36,816 nucleotides of DNA, from IMG/VR virus record IMGVR_UViG_2563366829_000018, positions 1 through 36,816 of that record; one strand, written 5' to 3'. This document shows positions 16,402 to 35,908 of this stretch, in pieces (positions within the stretch are counted from its first letter, which is position 1; each line of letters starts with the position of its first letter). The stretch is from a virus. Lineage: Duplodnaviria; Heunggongvirae; Uroviricota; Caudoviricetes. The notes under the pieces were generated by a model. That model ran no database searches and was not told the DNA's origin. It was given only the letters and a program-made list of their open reading frames with translations. A program made the position numbers and the translations under genes.

Positions 16402-16869
16402 TTATTTCAGGCACTGAGTGCGGATATATTCCTGCGCCACTTCCAGCTGCTTCTGCATCAGCATCAACCGCTCTCTGAGAGTGAAATAATCCCGTTCAGC
16501 GGTGTCTGCCAGTCGGGGGCCGGTTGCATTATCCACGCCGGAGGTGCCGGTGGCTTCACGCACGGTACCGGAGCAGGTGGCGTTGATCCGCAGGCGCTTA
16601 CGACCAGCGGCAACATCAGCACGCAGAGTTTCATTTTCAGCTCTCGCATCGGCTAATTCCCTCGAGTATTTTGCATCGAGCGCAGCAACATCACGCTGAC
16701 GCTGCTGCATGTCAGCGATGGTGGCGTTCGCCTGCTTCAGCTCACTGACTTTTTTATCACGCTGTTCTTTGTAGGCAATGGCGTTATCACGGTAATGATT
16801 GACCGCCCACGACAGGCAGACGATGGTGCAGATAACCAGAGCATAAATAATCGCGGCGACTCTGCTCAC
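16402..16869 (-). CDS. Rz: Spanin inner-membrane subunit Rz
   Basis: GTG start gives [34 protein letters not shown], near-identical to lambda Rz; GTGA overlap with the endolysin stop. Confidence 0.9.
16464..16649 (-). CDS. Rz1: Spanin outer-membrane lipoprotein Rz1, embedded in the +1 frame of Rz
   Basis: [10 protein letters not shown] lipobox and proline-rich [27 protein letters not shown] match lambda Rz1. Confidence 0.85.
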
Positions 16870-17399
16870 TGCTCTATCCCCCAACAGGCTAATGCGCTTT
16901 CCTGGTCACGACGAATAACTTGCCCATAGCAGTTATTTGAACGTATGCGGCAATCGCGCCCACCATCCTTAATCCACCAGCGAATCGCTTCGCATGCCCC
17001 CTTACGATCACCGGCATTCAGCCGCTTATAAAACGTCGACGGGAAACACTTACCGGGGCCAATGTTGTACGGACAGAATGACGCGATCCCCGCTTTCTGG
17101 GGTTCGGTCAGCGGCACTCTGATGTTTTTCTCCACCCACGCCAGCGCTTTATCACGCTCAATGGCGTTAACCTGGTCGCATTTTTCCTTCGACAACTTCA
17201 TGCCCGGAACGACAGGTTTGCCATCCACCATGATGGCACCACGGCAGATGGTCCAGATGCCGGAACCATCGCGGTATGCCGTTGTGTGGTTACCTTCTTT
17301 TTCATCCAGAAACTGGTCGAGAATATCAGGCGCGGGCGCACCGACGGCAATCAGTGCCAGAACGGCAGCCGACAGGCCGTATCTGATTTTTGCGTTCAT
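16866..17399 (-). CDS. R: Endolysin, T4-lysozyme-like (GH24) with an N-terminal signal-arrest-release segment
   Basis: Weakly hydrophobic Gly/Ala-rich N-terminus followed by a lysozyme-like domain; pairs with the S21-type pinholin. Confidence 0.85.
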
Positions 17400-17462
17400 G
17401 GATATTTATCAGGATTTATCGGTTTCTGCCCACGGACAGGTTTATCTGTTCTGGTCAGTGAC

Positions 17463-17813
17463 TTAAGGTTGTGATTCCGGAGGAGTCTTCAGAGAACCAG
17501 TAATTCTTCCTGGTAGCTTTCCTTTGTAGGTTATCCACACATTCTGCGCCTCTAAAATTACGGGGCGCTTTTCCGGCGACTGCTCATCCCCTTCACATAA
17601 CCCGGCAGCAACATCCAGGAAGACCTGTCTGATGCTCCTTCTGGCTGCTGCCTCATAAAACCCCAGCGCGGCACCTTCAACACGGTCCAGCGAGATGTCC
17701 AGGTCAAAAATTTCACCGTCAAAGCGTTTTTTGTCCCGTAACGCTAAAGTTACCGTAACTTTATTCTCAAAATTGCGGATCCCTTTCACAATCAGTTCAT
17801 AGTTTTGAATCAT
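17463..17813 (-). CDS. DUF1327-like protein (YdfR-like) encoded between holin and endolysin
   Basis: 116 aa; same position as ydfR in the Qin prophage lysis cassette; no recognisable catalytic motif. Confidence 0.5.
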   Translation of the reverse strand: MIQNYELIVKGIRNFENKVTVTLALRDKKRFDGEIFDLDISLDRVEGAALGFYEAAARRSIRQVFLDVAAGLCEGDEQSPEKRPVILEAQNVWITYKGKLPGRITGSLKTPPESQP

Positions 17814-17817
17814 TGAA

Positions 17818-18033
17818 TTACTCTCCCCGCGCAGCCTTACGACGGTCCTCTCTGATTTTGAAATACAGGTTAGTCAGATATGTCAGGAAGCCCAGAACCA
17901 GACTCCCCAGTACACCAATCGCAGCCCACTGTGACGGACTGACCTGATCAAGCCACTGTAAAAACCAGTAGCCAGCACTGCCTGCGGAGGTGCCGTAGGC
18001 AATGCCCGTTGAAATTTTATCCATGGATTTCAT
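17818..18033 (-). CDS. S: Pinholin, S21 family, with dual-start motif MKSMDK
   Basis: [71 protein letters not shown] matches phage 21 S; GGAGGTGAGG RBS. Confidence 0.85.
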
Positions 18034-18170
18034 AGCCTCACCTCCGCAGCGAACGGATGGCGTAGTTATAAGGGGAGCGAAAAAGAAAGAATGCGCGATT
18101 GCGCAATATGGTAACGTCAGGGTATTATCCACTGGCTGAATAGATCACTTCACGTTTTTTGTTCCTTGCC

Positions 18171-18198
18171 GCCCGTATCCATATGCGGGCTTTTTTTT
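18171..18198 (+). terminator. Plus-strand-oriented hairpin with an 8-T run (GCCCGTAT..ATGCGGGC TTTTTTTT)
   Basis: Read directly; lies back-to-back with a minus-strand terminator. Confidence 0.4.
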
Positions 18199-18203
18199 GC
18201 ATG

Positions 18204-18235
18204 TAAAAAGGCCCCAACACATGTGCGTGGGGCCT
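18204..18235 (-). terminator. Intrinsic terminator upstream of the lysis cassette (7-bp GGCCCCA stem, then TTTTT on the minus strand)
   Basis: Read directly. Confidence 0.45.
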
Positions 18236-18434
18236 GAGAGTATACATGGTTTCAGTCAACTGCATGGTGCCGTGTGCCTCCCGGTGAATTCAGTACCAGC
18301 ACCTGAATCCGCGATTATCCCATATACCTACTCGCTGATTGCCCCTCCGCACAGGGGGATTCACCATGCCAGTTTCTTTTGACAAACTCCCCGCAAAACA
18401 GACAACTGTCAACCGTCTGAATTGTGAGACATTT

Positions 18435-18459
18435 AAAAAAAGGCCCGCAAAAGCGAGCC
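18435..18459 (-). terminator. Intrinsic terminator just downstream of the tRNA cluster (GGCUCGC-UUUU-GCGGGCC followed by UUUUUUU)
   Basis: Read directly on the minus strand. Confidence 0.5.
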
Positions 18460-18473
18460 GGGAAAAATAAGTC

Positions 18474-18550
18474 TGGCGCGTTGTACTGGATTCGAACCAG
18501 TGACCGATTGCTTAGAAGGCAATTGCTCTGTCCGGTTGAGCTAACAACGC
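18474..18550 (-). tRNA. tRNA-Arg, anticodon UCU
   Basis: 77-nt cloverleaf folded by hand: GCGTTGT acceptor, anticodon loop CTTCTAA, TTCGAAT T-loop, encoded CCA. Confidence 0.85.
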
Positions 18551-18563
18551 AGGGTACAGATAA

Positions 18564-18640
18564 TGGACCACCATCGAGGACTCGAACCCCGCGCAACCAG
18601 CTTCGAAGGCTGGTGCTCTATCCTGATGAGCTAATGGCGG
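18564..18640 (-). tRNA. tRNA-Arg, anticodon UCG
   Basis: 77-nt cloverleaf folded by hand: anticodon loop CTTCGAA, TTCGAGT T-loop, encoded CCA. Confidence 0.8.
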
Positions 18641-18647
18641 TATGTGA

Positions 18648-18723
18648 TGGTGGCCCTTGCTGGATTTGAACCAGCGACCTGGCGATTATGAGTCGCTCGC
18701 TCTCACCACTGAGCTAAAGGGCC
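18648..18723 (-). tRNA. tRNA with CAU anticodon, ileX-like (Ile2 via lysidine, or Met)
   Basis: GGCCCTTTAGCTCAGTGGTGAGAGCGAGCGACTCATAATCGCC...CCA closely resembles E. coli ileX. Confidence 0.85.
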
Positions 18724-18751
18724 GAGCCAAAAAATAATAATCAGATGAAAA

Positions 18752-19465
18752 TCAATAATCAAGCCCTTGCCTGGATACATATCTGTCTGGCGGGAAGCCA
18801 TAATAGCGGTGAAATACAGAAATAAAGTAGGACCTGCTTGAATAACCGCATTTTTCTGCTATAGCCTGTCCATATCCATGCCGGGAACATAACATATTTA
18901 CAGCAACACGCATCCGCTCTTCCAGCAACAAGCGACTGAACATGCCCCCTTCATTTTTCAGTTTTGTCTTTAACAAACTCTCACTCATATGCAACTGTAG
19001 AGCAATCGCACCAAGCGTCCAGCTTGCTGATATATCTGTCTGAATTATCGCCCTGACTTTGGCACTTATGCTGGATAAACATCCACTTAAAAACAATGAC
19101 ATCCGTTCATCTGTTTCAAACAGAGACAGGCAGGCCATCATAAGAAACATATCCGTGGCCTCTCCGGAAAATCCCTGGCTGGTAATTAAAGCCGCAGCCA
19201 ACGCAGGATTGTTGGGTTCCAGCAACAGGTAAAGCGGAATGTCAGTCAGACGAGTCCTCGTCAGCTTATGCTGACTTTCCAGATATTGACTTACGACGGA
19301 TTCGCTTATATCGACAATTTTAACTTTGCCATAATGCATAAGGAAAAGCTCCCTGATGCATTTGGTGGCCAGAACAACTGAGCCTGGCTTAAGTGACAAC
19401 GTATCCTTTTCAAGAAAAATATTAATTGGGGAGCAAACCATGATAACTGAACAGACAACAGCCAT
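18752..19465 (-). CDS. AraC-family transcriptional regulator (prophage cargo, PatE-like)
   Basis: C-terminal AraC-type HTH (SESLLKTKLKNEGGMFSRLLLEERMRVAVNML ... GYSSRSYFISVFHRYYGFPP); AT-rich gene; start may be the internal Met at 19441. Confidence 0.75.
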   Translation of the reverse strand: MAVVCSVIMVCSPINIFLEKDTLSLKPGSVVLATKCIRELFLMHYGKVKIVDISESVVSQYLESQHKLTRTRLTDIPLYLLLEPNNPALAAALITSQGFSGEATDMFLMMACLSLFETDERMSLFLSGCLSSISAKVRAIIQTDISASWTLGAIALQLHMSESLLKTKLKNEGGMFSRLLLEERMRVAVNMLCSRHGYGQAIAEKCGYSSRSYFISVFHRYYGFPPDRYVSRQGLDY

Positions 19466-19587
19466 TATAATTTTACTTTCATTAGCAATTGGTTAGCTCA
19501 ATTATAGCCCCAAAAGGTAAATTATCATCAACACATAAGCAAAGGACTGACAGGTGTCGCCCCCCCACCAGCCGCCCATTCACCACA

Positions 19588-19613
19588 AATAAAAAGCCTT
19601 CAGGACTGAAGGC
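19588..19613 (-). terminator. Intrinsic terminator overlapping the 3' end of the 65-aa ORF
   Basis: Palindrome GCCTTCAGGACTGAAGGC followed by TTTTTATTT on the minus strand. Confidence 0.4.
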
Positions 19614-19797
19614 GTCTGTAACAACCGCACTGATAGTCTGCCAGACCCGCCATAACAAGCTGGGTCAGTATTAACTGGCAGCGTTCGCGTGAAAGGTAAG
19701 TATTCTGCGCAATCTCCCCGACTGTCGCCGGTTCGGTAACGCTTAATTCATCAAACACAACTCTGGCGGTTTCTGTCATATCCTGCTGTTTCAGCAT
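19600..19797 (-). CDS. Hypothetical small protein (65 aa), possible HTH
   Basis: ORF only; lies between two terminator-like hairpins. Confidence 0.35.
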   Translation of the reverse strand: MLKQQDMTETARVVFDELSVTEPATVGEIAQNTYLSRERCQLILTQLVMAGLADYQCGCYRRLQS

Positions 19798-19920
19798 GTC
19801 TTTTTACCCTTTCCGGTTAACGTGACATACCAATAACTCTTGTCTAAAAAGCCAGCAAGATAAAAAGCCAGTATTCACGACCACCAGCGTGTTTACTGTA
19901 CTGCACCAAGTTTACAGGTA

Positions 19921-19943
19921 CAAAAAACCCGCTCAGTGGCGGG
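19921..19943 (-). terminator. Intrinsic terminator downstream of the 205-aa cargo gene (AAACCCGC-CACUGA-GCGGGUUUUUUU)
   Basis: Read directly on the minus strand. Confidence 0.5.
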
Positions 19944-20075
19944 TTTAAGTTGTGTGGCGAAGTAACCACTCTTAACACACTAATAGCATTTTTGTTATAA
20001 CACAAGTAGCTCATTCAGTATTTTTAGAATCTTGACTTTCTTAAGCACGGCGAACTCTGAATACCAAACATAAAA

Positions 20076-20693
20076 TCAATTATCTTCCAGGCCGGATGCT
20101 ATCAACGAAAGCCTCTCAAAAAACGCTGTAGCAGCCTTGTCCAAAGTTGAATAAGTACTGTATTCTCCGTGTTCGGGACCAACCACTACCCATGGTCGTC
20201 TTTTTGGGATTCGGGACTTCTCAGAAATCACTGTTCCAGATATACCAATATCAATTGTTACACCTGTTATTATTTTCTCTTCATCTCTTTCCCTGAACTC
20301 AATTGCCATAAATGCCGTTTTTTTTCGTTTCCCGTTTTTAAAAAAATCAAATAAAGCAAAGCGATGCTCATTAAAATCAACACCCCATCGTCCTTCAGGA
20401 TAAAGGGCATGAAAGTTGTCATTTACGCTCTGCATCGTCTCATAAGCTTTAACTTCTAAATCTCCATAGTGCATAGATACCGCGCAGGAGTCACTGGGTA
20501 ACTGTATTTTCCCAAGATTGAAAACCTTTACTGCTCCAGAACTATGGCATCTTGCCCGCAATTTATCCCCATTTATACTAATCGGAGAAATATTCCTTAA
20601 TGTTCCGGGCTGGCTCCCTCCTAAGTAAACGACTGTTAAAGATTGCTTATTTTCAATTGCATCAACTAATACATGCTCTACATTTTTATCCAT
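20076..20693 (-). CDS. Hypothetical protein (205 aa), AT-rich cargo gene immediately downstream of Q
   Basis: Strong RBS GGGAGG 6 nt upstream of ATG (MDKNVEHV); no domain recognisable by eye. Confidence 0.6.
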   Translation of the reverse strand: MDKNVEHVLVDAIENKQSLTVVYLGGSQPGTLRNISPISINGDKLRARCHSSGAVKVFNLGKIQLPSDSCAVSMHYGDLEVKAYETMQSVNDNFHALYPEGRWGVDFNEHRFALFDFFKNGKRKKTAFMAIEFRERDEEKIITGVTIDIGISGTVISEKSRIPKRRPWVVVGPEHGEYSTYSTLDKAATAFFERLSLIASGLEDN

Positions 20694-20768
20694 AATAACC
20701 TCCCAATGAACAGGTATCATCAGGAGGTTATAATAAAATATGATTATTTACTTTGATTGAATTTATTA

Positions 20769-21140
20769 CTATATGTAACAATCAATTTCTAAAGATACCC
20801 CCAACATTGCCAGACAACCGTCAATAAACCCTTCAGCTTTCTGCAGTCTGATAACAACCTGATTAAGTGATATCCCCAGTTTTACCCCCAACACCCGTAA
20901 TGTAACCCCATACACATAATACATTTCCAGTAATTCGTATTGATACGGTTCCTTTTTCTTAAGAACTGTCATCGCAGAGCTAATGATCAGGCCATCGTCA
21001 TCGCTACATTGCGGGCGGGATTTTACTTTCGAAGGAATTAATCCCTTAAAACCTGCAGCAACAGATGACCATTCCACATCCTCGTGATTATTTGCCACCC
21101 ATGCCCCCCAACGTTCAAGAACCATTTGAATATCACGCAT
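20769..21140 (-). CDS. Q: Late-gene antiterminator Q (QuuD/phage-82 type)
   Basis: MRDIQMVLERWGAWVANNHEDVEWSSVAAGFKGL matches the QuuD-family N-terminus as I recall it; GGAG RBS; position upstream of the lysis module. Confidence 0.75.
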   Translation of the reverse strand: MRDIQMVLERWGAWVANNHEDVEWSSVAAGFKGLIPSKVKSRPQCSDDDGLIISSAMTVLKKKEPYQYELLEMYYVYGVTLRVLGVKLGISLNQVVIRLQKAEGFIDGCLAMLGVSLEIDCYI

Positions 21141-21157
21141 CAACTTTCTCCACAAAA

Positions 21158-22153
21158 TCAGGCCAGCACGCCTATTGCCAGCGCACGATCGATAAAACGA
21201 AATATCAGCTCCAGCTGGGAGCCATACTTCTCTTCAAATGCCACGGTATCCGCATGCAGCTCGTCGTGATGCTTTCTGCACAAAGGCAGCACGAAGAGGT
21301 CATGCGCTTTTGTACCCATTCCCCCCTGACCGTGGCCTATCAGGTGGTGGGGATCATCAGCAGGCTTTCCACAACATGCACACGGCTGCGTCTTAACCCA
21401 GCGCGTGTACTTTTCATTAACCCAGCGGCGACGTTTGGGGCGTAACATAAAAGACTCCGGCGACTCCGGATCCACTTTCAGCGCCAGCACCTTTTTCGCT
21501 TTATCCTGGATGATGCTGGTGGCAGGAACCGAAGGCACAAGGTCACTTTCCCGGGTGACAGACGGCACAACAGGCTTCGGTAATCTCAGTGCCTTACGGG
21601 CTGCACTTTCCGGTAAGGCATCCGCCAGGTCATTACGAATCAGCCACCAGCACAGTTCCGGCATTGTCACAACGTGACTGTCATCAAAACCGAGATCCCG
21701 ACGCACAACAGACAACACCCAGCGGGCACAGTTATCCGTTGCCATTGATTCCAGCCGTTCCGTGAACTGATCGCGCAGCTGGTTATCGCAGTGCCAGCAC
21801 AGACGGATTGCACCCGGAGCGTGTCGCATTGTGGTCATGTTCTCGCTGTGCCATCCGGAATGAGGCCACTGGCAGCCTTTTTCACGAAGTAACCAGCTTT
21901 CAAGACATTCCACGCCACCAGCACGACGGATCACTGCCTCATGGCGGAACACGGCCCGAACGGCAGGATCATCCGCCAGCGGTTGTGATGCCGCCGGAAC
22001 GGCACCACTGGCGAAAGATGAATAACGCTCCGGCTCAGGCTCCAGCAGGACACGCCCCTGCATAAACAGGGGCATCAGCTCTGAACCTGGCCTGAACAAT
22101 ACGATCCCCATACGCGGGGCAATTTCAGGGGTCAGTAGTGCTCTCACAGTCAC
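21158..22153 (-). CDS. DUF968-family protein (YdfU-like) with a C-terminal Cys/His cluster
   Basis: CACCGKPADDPHHLIGHGQGGMGTKAHDLFVLPLCRKHHDELH; sits immediately upstream of Q as ydfU does in Qin. Confidence 0.75.
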   Translation of the reverse strand: MTVRALLTPEIAPRMGIVLFRPGSELMPLFMQGRVLLEPEPERYSSFASGAVPAASQPLADDPAVRAVFRHEAVIRRAGGVECLESWLLREKGCQWPHSGWHSENMTTMRHAPGAIRLCWHCDNQLRDQFTERLESMATDNCARWVLSVVRRDLGFDDSHVVTMPELCWWLIRNDLADALPESAARKALRLPKPVVPSVTRESDLVPSVPATSIIQDKAKKVLALKVDPESPESFMLRPKRRRWVNEKYTRWVKTQPCACCGKPADDPHHLIGHGQGGMGTKAHDLFVLPLCRKHHDELHADTVAFEEKYGSQLELIFRFIDRALAIGVLA

Positions 22154-25810: not shown

Positions 25811-26031
25811 GCAGCACCTCCGAGATGCTTCATGTTTTTTCCGGAGCGAAAGGCTATAAGCGGCATACTGACGCGGTAATTACGGCCCAGCGGTTCACAA
25901 ATCACCTTCTGACATTCACGGTCAACCAGGCTAACACGTAGAACATGCCCTGCAGGCGTGGTGTACCACTGACCCGGACGAGGACAACGGAAAGTATGAT
26001 TGGTAAACCGTTTGAAAATATTCCGGATCAT
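25807..26031 (-). CDS. Hypothetical small protein (74 aa)
   Basis: ORF translationally coupled to the O-like gene; no recognisable domain. Confidence 0.3.
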   Translation of the reverse strand: MIRNIFKRFTNHTFRCPRPGQWYTTPAGHVLRVSLVDRECQKVICEPLGRNYRVSMPLIAFRSGKNMKHLGGAA

Positions 26032-27188
26032 TTACGCCCCCTTACCTCTGAAGGGTTCAGCGACAAATTTATGAGACTGGCCAGTAGCGCCGCGTCGTTG
26101 ATGCGGTCATACAGACTTACAGCCAGCGGGGATTCGGCTTTTGCCAACATGGGATAAAGCTGCTGCAGCCAGACCTTGTGGATTACCGACAGGTGGGAGT
26201 AAAGCACGCTGGCGTTATCTGCGGCATCGCTCAGCGTGGATGGCTTTGAAAGCAGTTTTTCCATCTGGTTAAAGGCATTGATGTATGCCTCTTTGAACCG
26301 GGCAGCACGTTTACCCGTGAAACCCATAGCAAGAAACGCAAAACCGTCTCGTGTGATTTGATAGCAAAGGAGCTTGCGTGTACCACCGTTCGGTTGATTT
26401 ACCGAAATCGATGTCTCCGCAAAATTGCGGGCACAAAACTCAGGGGAACAATCCAGAGTGCGGATCTTTTTCAGCACATCGTCGTGACGCTTGGAGAAGA
26501 AGTTGGCAACAGCCAAAGAAGTGGTAACGGCCTGGCCGTTGTCAATGGTGATTTCAGGTTGAGTGAGGGCTGGGATCGTAGCCATGATGGCAGCCTCCGT
26601 TGACAGTGAAAAACTTCCACCACCGGAAACGCCAATTTCACTGGTGGTGAACTGGACGGGGTTGGCGTAACCGGCGTCAACGGAGACCGGCGCACCTTTC
26701 GGTGCCCCCGCCCAGCCCACCATAATCTGGATGTGAGCAAATGCGGACGATAAAAAAGACGCTGGCGCGTCATACATCGCCGTTGACAATTTCAGGACGC
26801 CAATCCCGGCACCCGCTTTATAAGGTGCCTGAACAGTGTAACGTCCCGGAATTGCAGAATCAATATGCTGGTGGTCCTTCACACTCAACAAAATCACGCC
26901 TGAATTTCCACAAAGGACTAAAGCACTCATGCGGGTAGTCTTTGCGAAGATAGATAACGCGCTGTGTTTCTGGCTCCCAACGAATAACATGGACATAAAG
27001 CCCTCTTCCGTCACGAAACCAGCGGTTAAGTTCCTGCACAACTCGCCCCCCACAGTCAGGTAAAGTTCTCTGTGGTTACTTACAGCCAGGTGATTTGGTA
27101 ATCTGCATTCATGCCGTAACAACAGGTGTTCAGCGACGCTGACCACCAGCTGTTGCGACAAACGGTTATTTGCCGTTAAACTATTCAT
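26028..27188 (-). CDS. Rha-family phage regulatory protein with a ~200-aa N-terminal extension
   Basis: Rha-like core (ITIDNGQAVTTSLAVANFFSKRHDDVLKKIRTL) at residues ~210-300; ATGA coupling with the CII-like gene supports the long form; an alternative start at 26585 has a GGAGG RBS. Confidence 0.55.
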   Translation of the reverse strand: MNSLTANNRLSQQLVVSVAEHLLLRHECRLPNHLAVSNHRELYLTVGGELCRNLTAGFVTEEGFMSMLFVGSQKHSALSIFAKTTRMSALVLCGNSGVILLSVKDHQHIDSAIPGRYTVQAPYKAGAGIGVLKLSTAMYDAPASFLSSAFAHIQIMVGWAGAPKGAPVSVDAGYANPVQFTTSEIGVSGGGSFSLSTEAAIMATIPALTQPEITIDNGQAVTTSLAVANFFSKRHDDVLKKIRTLDCSPEFCARNFAETSISVNQPNGGTRKLLCYQITRDGFAFLAMGFTGKRAARFKEAYINAFNQMEKLLSKPSTLSDAADNASVLYSHLSVIHKVWLQQLYPMLAKAESPLAVSLYDRINDAALLASLINLSLNPSEVRGRK

Positions 27189-34594: not shown

Positions 34595-35908
34595 ATGGAT
34601 AAAGTCAAATATCCAACAGGCGTCGAAAACCACGGCGGCACATTACGCATCTGGTTTAATTTTAAAGGTAAACGTGTCAGGGAAAATCTTGGTGTCCCTG
34701 ACACTGCCAAGAACAGGAAGATCGCCGGGGAACTGCGGACATCAGTATGTTTTGCCATCCGCACAGGAAGCTTTGATTATGCTGCACAGTTCCCTGACTC
34801 CCCCAACCTTCAGGCTTTTGGGGTAAGTAAAAAAGAAATTACGGTGAAGGAACTTGAAGAAAAGTGGCTGGATCTGAAACGAATGGAAATCTCTGCAAAT
34901 GCATTCAATCGCTATGAATCCGTTGCAAGAACGATGGTTCCGAAAATTGGAGGCAGTAGACTGGTGTCATCGGTAACCAAAGAGGAATTGCTGTATATCA
35001 GGAAAGATTTGCTGACCGGGTATCAGAATTCAACGAAAAACAAAGCAGCAGCAAAAGGACGGAGCGTCGTTACTGTAAATTATTACATGACGACAATCGC
35101 TGGAATGTTTCAGTTTGCTGCAGATCACGGTTACTTAGAAGCAAATCCCTTCCAGGGAATTAAGCCTCTTAAAAGAGCCAGGGCAGAGCCAGATCCGCTA
35201 ACTCGTGACGAATTTATTCGCCTGATAGATGCTTGCCGACATCAGCAGACGAAAAACCTGTGGTCATTGGCTGTGTACACAGGAATGCGTCACGGTGAAC
35301 TGGTCTCCCTGGCCTGGGAAGATATCGATCTGAAGGCAGGAACAATTACCATCAGGCGCAATTATACGAAACTTGGTGAGTTCACTCTACCGAAAACTGA
35401 AGCAAGCACAAACAGGGTTGTGCACCTTATCCAGCCCGCTATCAGTGTCCTGAAAAATCAGGCTGAAATGACAAGACTGGGTAAGCAGTACAACATCAAG
35501 GTGCAACTACGTGAATATGGACGTTCAGTGAACCATGAATGTACTTTCGTGTTTAACCCTCAAGTGGTTAGAAAAAGCGAACAGGTAGGTTTTGTCTACA
35601 AAGTCGATTCTGTAGGTGACTCATGGGAAACAGCCATTAAGCGTGCAGGGATCAGGCATCGAAAGGCATACCAGTCACGACACACTTATGCGTGCTGGTC
35701 ATTATCTGCCGGAGCAAACCCAAGCTTCATTGCCAGCCAGATGGGCCATGCAAGTGCCCAGATGGTATTCAATGTATACGGAGCATGGATGACTGACAGC
35801 AATGCAGAACAGATCGCAATGCTGAATCAGAAGCTGACAGATTATGTCCCAATGATGCCCCATAGTCACCAAAGTGACACCAGAGGCTTATTAAAATCAG
35901 TAAGTTAA
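34595..35908 (+). CDS. int: Tyrosine-type site-specific integrase
   Basis: C-terminal catalytic motifs (R...HxxR...Y: MRHGELVSL, YQSRHTYACW, VFNVYG); GGAGG RBS; at the prophage end. Confidence 0.9.
   Translation: MDKVKYPTGVENHGGTLRIWFNFKGKRVRENLGVPDTAKNRKIAGELRTSVCFAIRTGSFDYAAQFPDSPNLQAFGVSKKEITVKELEEKWLDLKRMEISANAFNRYESVARTMVPKIGGSRLVSSVTKEELLYIRKDLLTGYQNSTKNKAAAKGRSVVTVNYYMTTIAGMFQFAADHGYLEANPFQGIKPLKRARAEPDPLTRDEFIRLIDACRHQQTKNLWSLAVYTGMRHGELVSLAWEDIDLKAGTITIRRNYTKLGEFTLPKTEASTNRVVHLIQPAISVLKNQAEMTRLGKQYNIKVQLREYGRSVNHECTFVFNPQVVRKSEQVGFVYKVDSVGDSWETAIKRAGIRHRKAYQSRHTYACWSLSAGANPSFIASQMGHASAQMVFNVYGAWMTDSNAEQIAMLNQKLTDYVPMMPHSHQSDTRGLLKSVS

Follow-up and report, generated by a model that had tools for sequence, protein, structure and literature searches.

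We asked what a cluster of three tRNA genes is doing in the late region of a lambda-like prophage, and what its presence says about Shiga toxin (Stx) genes that one might expect to find beside it. The stretch of DNA analysed, which we call the window, is the whole of IMG/VR virus record IMGVR_UViG_2563366829_000018 (Caudoviricetes, 36,816 nucleotides), and the cluster lies at positions 18474-18723. The original prediction, made from the letters alone, had compared it with the ileZ-argN-argO cluster found upstream of stx in Stx-converting phages. We consider it quite probable that the cluster is the ileZ-argN-argO operon of lambdoid phages, located in the late-control region of a lambda-like Escherichia coli prophage whose stx slot is empty, and that its tRNAs raise the supply of decoders for rare codons. 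The presence of the genes, their homology, their context and the codon demand around them are established by the comparisons that follow.

The three tRNA genes and their identity

ARAGORN, applied to the whole window, found exactly three tRNA genes, all on the minus strand, the strand of the late genes. Along the direction of transcription the order of anticodons is CAU, UCG, UCU. The genes and the two elements that flank them are:

18648-18723, minus strand: tRNA-Ile2 with anticodon CAU, homologue of ileZ (ARAGORN; Rfam 72.5 bits)
18564-18640, minus strand: tRNA-Arg with anticodon UCG, homologue of argN (ARAGORN; Rfam 53.9 bits)
18474-18550, minus strand: tRNA-Arg with anticodon UCU, homologue of argO (ARAGORN; Rfam 70.1 bits)
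18734-18762, minus strand: putative sigma-70 tRNA promoter pT (TTGATT-17-TATTAT; promoter scan), aligning with a feature entered in the 933W record as 'pT; putative tRNA promoter'
18442-18459, minus strand: Rho-independent terminator 3' of argO, GGCTCGCTTTTGCGGGCC followed by a T run (terminator scan)

The Rfam scores of the three tRNAs are far beyond chance (E <= 8e-10 for each, with a gathering score of 29 for the tRNA model). Rfam matches to Y RNA-like and Plastid-ycf2 models over the same genes were below threshold and were set aside as tRNA cross-matches or chance. The coordinates and anticodons given in the original prediction were borne out by ARAGORN, and the Rfam tRNA model accepted all three folds (53.9-72.5 bits); the strand had been left unstated.

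The closest described counterpart is the cluster of phage 933W (NC_000924, 21120-21371), with which the window shares the anticodons, their order, their strand relative to the late genes, the -35 and -10 elements of pT, the terminator and the position between the late promoter PR' and the holin gene S. In alignments the CAU tRNA is identical to 933W ileZ at 76/76 bases, the UCG tRNA to argN at 72/77 and the UCU tRNA to argO at 75/77, so that the proposed resemblance to ileZ-argN-argO in order and identity holds and extends to the promoter and the terminator. When six phages were aligned, the -35 TTG and the -10 TTATTAT of pT were invariant and the remaining upstream DNA had diverged; the argO terminator, which is the one annotated in 933W as lying 'upstream of the stx genes', was invariant as well. 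The spacer between the -10 element and the tRNA start, compared at window positions 18724-18762, comes in two forms: it is GC-rich and resembles a stringent-control discriminator in 933W, the Stx2a phage and PhiR49_2 (CCTGCGCC), and AT-rich (TTTTTGG) in the window, S88 and Stx2k versions. This difference suggests that the tRNA promoter may be regulated differently in the two upstream lineages.

The gene with anticodon CAU could in principle encode tRNA-Met or tRNA-Ile2. Its sequence is 68/76 identical to that of K-12 ileX and only 52/77 to metT/metU, and it has the acceptor pairs C4:G69 and C5:G68 of ileX at the positions where tRNA-Met has U4:A69 and A5:U68. These two pairs distinguish the substrates of TilS from tRNA-Met. 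Because of this ileX-like body and these pairs we assign the gene, from its sequence, to the ileX type of tRNA-Ile2 and not to tRNA-Met; after lysidinylation, the codon that it is predicted to read should be AUA. The tRNA-Met label that ARAGORN and some PGAP runs attach to it was overruled on the same two grounds. RefSeq genomes and phage records disagree over near-identical copies of this tRNA, some giving tRNA-Met and others tRNA-Ile, which is a systematic annotation inconsistency for ileX-type tRNAs. With respect to the host, the window tRNAs share their anticodons and predicted decoding with K-12 ileX and argU, but the UCU tRNA is only 55/77 identical to argU, and the CAU tRNA departs from ileX at the remaining positions of the 76. 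To our knowledge, K-12 has no chromosomal equivalent of the tRNA-Arg(UCG).

Codon demand and the proposed role of the tRNAs

We then asked whether the genes of the prophage use the codons that these tRNAs are predicted to read. Codon use in 40 window genes was compared with that in 42 annotated K-12 core genes (100-150 kb). AUA, AGA and CGA occur 7.4, 6.5 and 6.5 times per 1000 codons in the window genes versus 2.4, 1.2 and 2.6 times in the K-12 core (odds ratios 3.1, 5.4 and 2.5; p <= 9e-6). The earlier suggestion that the cluster serves rare AUA, AGA and CGA codons is in keeping with the anticodons and with the rarity of these codons in the K-12 core genes, the decoding itself being predicted. 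The use of rare codons is high close to the tRNAs: AUA reaches 25 per 1000 codons in the cargo genes between the antiterminator gene Q and the tRNAs, and the three codons together reach 65 per 1000 in one of these, a WYL-like gene (GC 0.40), which is the highest value in the window and compares with 72 per 1000 in stx2A. AGG and CGG, which Arg tRNAs with U34 could read through wobble, are enriched 8-fold and 3-fold, respectively, in the window genes. Across AUA, AGA/AGG and CGA/CGG, the enrichment in the prophage genes ranges from 2.5 to 10 times.

We propose that the tRNAs, once transcribed, would be freed by the RNase P and the 3' processing enzymes of the host. In the CAU tRNA, C34 would be changed to lysidine by TilS, with the result that AUA would be read as Ile; of the two Arg tRNAs with U34, one would decode AGA (and AGG) and the other CGA (and CGG). 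Jointly, the three tRNAs would enlarge the pool of decoders for the rarest codons of E. coli, which the genes of the prophage over-use, most of all the AT-rich cargo around the tRNAs (the WYL-like and AraC-like genes here, stx2A in Stx phages). The codon demand supports this codon-supply role and does not prove it.

An alternative is that the tRNAs serve mainly as a counter-defence, replacing or evading host tRNA-Arg or tRNA-Ile species that are targeted by anticodon nucleases or toxins. Other phages are known whose tRNAs escape defences directed at tRNAs, and phage argO and argN do differ from host argU in their anticodon loops and stems (55/77). However, the window contains no sign of a tRNA-targeting system or of escape from one, the module is retained in thousands of resident prophages, and the three anticodons are exactly those that decode the rarest codons, as codon supply predicts and counter-defence does not. 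We therefore regard a counter-defence role as improbable.

Several points weigh against the codon-supply reading itself. The expression, modification and benefit of the tRNAs are what we infer, and the benefit is argued from a correlation. AT-rich DNA acquired horizontally is generally enriched in rare codons, and there are many lambdoid phages that have no tRNAs. AGG and CGG are enriched at least as much as the cognate codons, so that the match between supply and demand is not specific. Both pT and PR' are placed by homology to features that the 933W record itself terms 'putative'. Lastly, the argN copy of the window carries a private change, C70>U.

This change, at position 18570, is the only base at which the 250-bp cluster departs from its closest counterpart in the 5426 complete E. 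coli genomes searched, and it converts G3-C70 in the acceptor stem of tRNA-Arg(UCG) into G3·U70. U70 was absent from the best-matching cluster copies in these genomes, all 17 distinct viral clusters of the same length (17/17) differ from the window at 18570, and a 25-mer containing U70 had 0 exact matches in IMG/VR as compared with at least 120 for the C70 version. A G3·U70 pair is the main identity element for alanyl-tRNA synthetase. The U70 argN might thus be charged by that enzyme and insert some alanine at CGA and CGG, as a natural mistranslating phage tRNA, an idea that we hold to be highly improbable; argN has U73, C2:G71 and C4:G69, and the other alanine determinants A73, G2:C71 and G4:C69 are missing. 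C70>U is more likely to be a neutral wobble substitution or a sequencing error.

The empty stx slot and the small RNA gene beside it

If the cluster is that of Stx phages, where would the toxin genes have been? A tblastn search of the whole window found no homologue of Stx2A or Stx2B (best E 0.36), which agrees with the absence of toxin genes noted earlier. The distance from the 3' end of argO (18474) to the start codon of holin S (18033), read from the sequence, is exactly 440 bp; the original prediction had given about 440 bp and had filled it with terminators, to which a full-length small RNA (sRNA) gene has to be added. Two elements are found in this gap beyond the argO terminator:

18432-18435: empty stx cargo site (alignment with LC567818, 933W and the Stx2k phage)
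18199-18398, minus strand: prophage sRNA gene of the STnc100/PasD family with its own terminator (Rfam RF02076, 128.9 bits)

On the tRNA side, homology to 933W, to the Stx2a phage LC567818 and to the Stx2k phage OQ243220 ends at 18436, directly past the T-tract of the terminator. In LC567818 the homology picks up again 47 nt past the stx2B stop codon and spans window positions 18431-18341; 1335 bp with stx2AB lie in that phage between the segment matching 18436-18724 and the segment matching 18341-18431. Because the tRNA-side homology stops at 18436 and the homology beyond stx2B starts at 18431, these alignments place the stx slot at the 4 bp 18432-18435, where the window has no cargo. The alignment with Stx-phage late regions that had been suggested as a check thus pins the insertion point to 4 bp between the argO terminator and the STnc100-family sRNA gene.

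This sRNA gene matches positions 1-206 of the 206 of its Rfam model, at 128.9 bits against a gathering score of 47, and its 3' end is formed by its own GC-rich hairpin and U-run. A TTGACA motif occurs just 5' of it, at ~18413-18408. In the aligned Stx2 phages the STnc100 element follows just downstream of stx2B, before the lysis genes, and it has been reported 75 nt downstream of the stx2 operon (PMC12370729). STnc100 has been related to the PasD prophage sRNAs, which lie upstream of esterase-holin-lysozyme genes (bioRxiv 10.64898/2026.05.13.724894). The window copy is thus a full-length member of this group (RF02076) in the same place as in Stx2 phages, past the stx slot and before the lysis genes. 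A 46-amino-acid open reading frame at 18125-18265, listed as hypothetical in some records, overlaps the 3' end of the sRNA and its terminator and is most likely spurious. Between the sRNA gene and the holin gene, the plus strand also has a strong hairpin of terminator type at 18171-18190, with eight consecutive T, which may stop antisense transcription coming from the lysis genes.

How common is a cluster without stx? Counting the cluster as present at >=80% coverage, we found it in 2578 of the 5426 complete E. coli genomes, in up to 13 copies per genome, and the cargo-free junction of argO, STnc100 and holin in 97 of them. From IMG/VR we sampled 120 contigs with the argN 3' end, of which ~52 loci had enough downstream DNA. 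Stx2A-Stx2B follows argO in 13 of these ~52; STnc100, then NanS-p, then holin in 8; STnc100 and directly the holin in 7, 5 of them with the ~442 bp spacing seen in the window; and other cargo in the remainder. All three tRNAs were still called in 92 of the 98 complete clusters of the sample. The stx-free arrangement is therefore a frequent and known state of this cargo hot spot.

The individual relatives bear different parts of the window's arrangement. The cargo-free order of tRNAs, STnc100 and holin is that of PhiR49_2, vB_EcoS-611R1 and the MS8345 prophage. The non-Stx phage PhiR49_2 (PV340570) is 99.2% identical over window positions 17401-18724, covering tRNAs, terminator, sRNA, holin and YdfR, and the MS8345 prophage shares the layout, with a one-base difference in the 250-bp cluster; elements of the PhiR49_2/MS8345 type differ from the window in having a DNA methylase remnant directly 3' of Q, in place of the WYL-like, 65-amino-acid and AraC genes. 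The prophage of S88 (NC_011742, a neonatal meningitis E. coli (NMEC) strain) is 99.6% identical from Q through the tRNAs (18334-21300), but has a nanS-p esterase gene, DUF1378 and DUF826 between its tRNAs and holin. phiSTEC1575-Stx2k (OQ243220) is 92.6% identical over the tRNAs and the 65-amino-acid and AraC genes, and carries stx2k at the slot that is empty in the window.

The differences from 933W are larger. Past the terminator, 933W has stx2AB and then nanS-p and other genes before S, whereas the slot of the window is empty. The 933W tRNAs lie ~0.4 kb from Q and pR' and those of the window ~1.2 kb downstream of PR', with the 65-amino-acid and AraC-family genes in between and a WYL-like gene parting Q from PR'. 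Finally, 933W is a short-tailed Sepvirinae phage, and the window prophage has lambda-like head and tail genes. The pair stxA and stxB between the tRNAs or PR' and the lysis genes, by which an Stx-converting phage is recognized, is absent from the window. A homologous late-control module is present, its tRNAs, 65-amino-acid gene and Q being matched by >200 Stx-phage records. The description of the locus as an stx-less relative of an Stx-phage late region is thus right for this module; it does not extend to the lambda-like head and tail genes, and the module, being found in 2578/5426 genomes, is not specific to Stx phages.

Could a deletion nevertheless have recently removed stxAB from what was once an Stx phage, making the window an 'stx-lost' element of the enterohaemorrhagic E. 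coli (EHEC) type whose tRNAs are left over from the toxin module? The window is collinear with LC567818 on either side of stx2AB and the junction is clean to ~4 bp, as such a deletion would leave it. A recent loss is not indicated, however, because identity to Stx2a phages is no more than ~81% in the right flank, as against 93.8% on the tRNA side. The block from tRNAs to holin is 99.2% identical to the non-Stx PhiR49_2, with the same junction in 97 complete genomes; the best matches of the block from Q to the tRNAs come from strains of the extraintestinal pathogenic E. coli (ExPEC) type such as S88; the structural genes are lambda-, cdtI- and mEp460-like; and half of all E. coli genomes have the tRNA module, a much larger share than have stx. 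A recent deletion is accordingly distinctly improbable.

The last alternative takes the tRNA genes to be without function, as relics of integration sites or pieces of host tRNAs moved by prophage recombination. It draws on the common use of tRNA genes as phage attachment sites and on a preprint that reads tRNA matches near prophage sRNAs as integration-linked (bioRxiv 10.64898/2026.05.13.724894), but we give it almost no credence, as the genes are complete (54-72 bits), lie in the middle of a late operon rather than at a prophage end and ~16 kb from the integrase, have a conserved promoter and terminator, occur in the packaged genomes of 933W, PhiR49_2 and the Stx2k phage, retain all three cloverleaves in 92/98 sampled viral clusters and include an argN that, as no chromosomal tRNA-Arg(UCG) is known from K-12, is not a K-12-type host pick-up.

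The late-control region and the rest of the prophage

The ileZ-argN-argO operon lies in the late-control region. From Q down to the tRNAs, this region comprises the following minus-strand elements:

20769-21155, minus strand: antiterminator Q, 128 amino acids (PF06530 Phage_antitermQ, E 1.5e-47, full length; PHROG 79)
20076-20720, minus strand: WYL-like cargo gene, 214 amino acids (PHROG 8498, E 3e-126; Pfam WYL at 16.3 bits, below cut-off)
19920-20010, minus strand: late promoter PR', qut and first terminator tR', by homology (aligning with the pR', qut and rho-independent terminator of 933W)
19867-19888, minus strand: second terminator-like hairpin of the late leader (terminator scan)
19600-19797, minus strand: 65-amino-acid winged-helix (TrmB-like) small protein (PHROG 331, E 6e-37; weak Pfam TrmB match)
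19596-19613, minus strand: terminator-like hairpin after the 65-amino-acid gene, GCCTTCAGTCCTGAAGGC then TTTTTATTTG (terminator scan)
18752-19465, minus strand: AraC/XylS-family regulator, 237 amino acids, prophage cargo (Pfam HTH_AraC, E 2.4e-13, and HTH_18; PHROG 1450)

The lysis genes and their neighbour on the other side of the tRNAs are:

17818-18033, minus strand: class II holin S, 71 amino acids, starting MKSMDK (PF04971 P21 holin S, E 8.6e-36)
17463-17813, minus strand: YdfR/DUF1327 protein (PF07041, E 3.9e-41)
16866-17399, minus strand: endolysin R, a lysozyme (PF00959, E 8.8e-24)
16402-16884, minus strand: spanin Rz (PF03245, E 2.5e-49)

On the minus strand the order is thus Q, WYL-like gene, PR'/qut/tR', 65-amino-acid winged-helix gene, AraC-family gene, pT, tRNA-Ile2(CAU), tRNA-Arg(UCG) and tRNA-Arg(UCU), followed by the terminator, the empty cargo site, the STnc100 sRNA gene, holin S, YdfR, R and Rz. 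The tRNAs had been described as lying between Q and the lysis genes, and the Pfam matches to Q, S, R and Rz confirm that position; what the description missed is that Q is ~2 kb upstream of the tRNAs, with three protein genes and the PR'/qut/tR' segment intervening. The counterpart of Q in the 99.6%-identical S88 prophage is annotated as an antiterminator Q family protein. The WYL-like gene, whose start the S88 annotation puts at window position 20693, is absent from Stx2a_14040 and PhiR49_2, and in these the PR' segment follows directly 3' of Q. With a gene inserted between Q and PR', the late operon of prophages of this type is properly located by PR' and not by Q.

The PR'/qut/tR' segment contains a conserved block, TAAGAGTGGTTAC...GCCAC...CCCGC-loop-GCGGGTTTTTT, with the hairpin predicted by folding. 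We propose that transcripts starting at PR' would halt at tR' unless Q modified the RNA polymerase, and that the segment from PR' to tR' would then give a short leader RNA like StxS. A polymerase modified by Q would read through the 65-amino-acid gene, the AraC gene, the tRNAs and the sRNA gene into S-R-Rz, passing at least five terminators before S. pT would allow transcription of the tRNAs independently of Q and hence in the lysogen, and after induction the tRNAs would also be made from the PR' transcript. The order of the elements and the number of terminators (12 in the terminator scan versus 3.6 expected in shuffles) fit the standard lambdoid late scheme.

Both other genes upstream of the tRNAs have counterparts in Stx phages. 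The 65-amino-acid gene is ~91% identical in Stx2a_14040 and the Stx2k phages, and its annotation in the Stx2k phage and phiP27 is that of a TrmB family regulator. The AraC-family gene, which lies directly 5' of the tRNAs and has a promoter-like site of its own at 19528-19501, also precedes the tRNAs in the Stx2k phage and in the NMEC strain S88. The homologues of its protein come from E. coli or Shigella in every case in which the source states an organism, and homologue clusters at 98% and 91% identity contain O157 members; the names that these homologues bear are generic ones. The protein may be a prophage regulator of the Psr/PatE type of EHEC (PsrA, Z1789; PsrB, Z2104; PatE, Z0321; acid resistance, type III secretion); Psr homologues occur in NMEC isolates according to a review (PMC10877973). 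A reading of the cargo genes as a defence system was rejected, as PADLOC gave only sub-threshold WYL and SWIM matches, and an STnc130 match at 19832-19954 was dismissed as chance (28 bits against a gathering score of 55, E 0.37).

Outside this region, a 61-amino-acid open reading frame at 16464-16649 is nested in Rz where Rz1 would be and is a putative Rz1 by position alone. The integrase is encoded at 34595-35908. The window is a mosaic lambdoid prophage whose head and tail genes are of the siphovirus kind and resemble those of lambda, cdtI, mEp460 and Tritos rather than those of 933W. In the early region, on the minus strand, a C4 antisense RNA (26640-26727, Rfam 81.4 bits) adjoins an isrK Hfq-binding RNA (26752-26828, Rfam 62.2 bits), both inside a crude call of a 386-amino-acid open reading frame at 26028-27188. 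The pair suggests an RNA-controlled antirepressor module like those of P1/P7 or Gifsy, in which the start of the reading frame 26028-27188 has been called too early.

What, then, does the locus add? Descriptions already exist of the STnc100 element, the stx slot and the ileZ-argN-argO module, and the stx-free configuration is common; the tRNAs and their place beside the stx slot have been annotated since the 933W genome, so that the cluster carries little weight as a discovery. For annotation, its use is that the CAU tRNA should be named tRNA-Ile2. For the biology of lambdoid phages, the locus illustrates a cargo hot spot in which AT-rich genes that are rich in rare codons (stx, nanS-p, AraC-like regulators) are exchanged around a fixed scaffold of tRNAs, terminator and sRNA.

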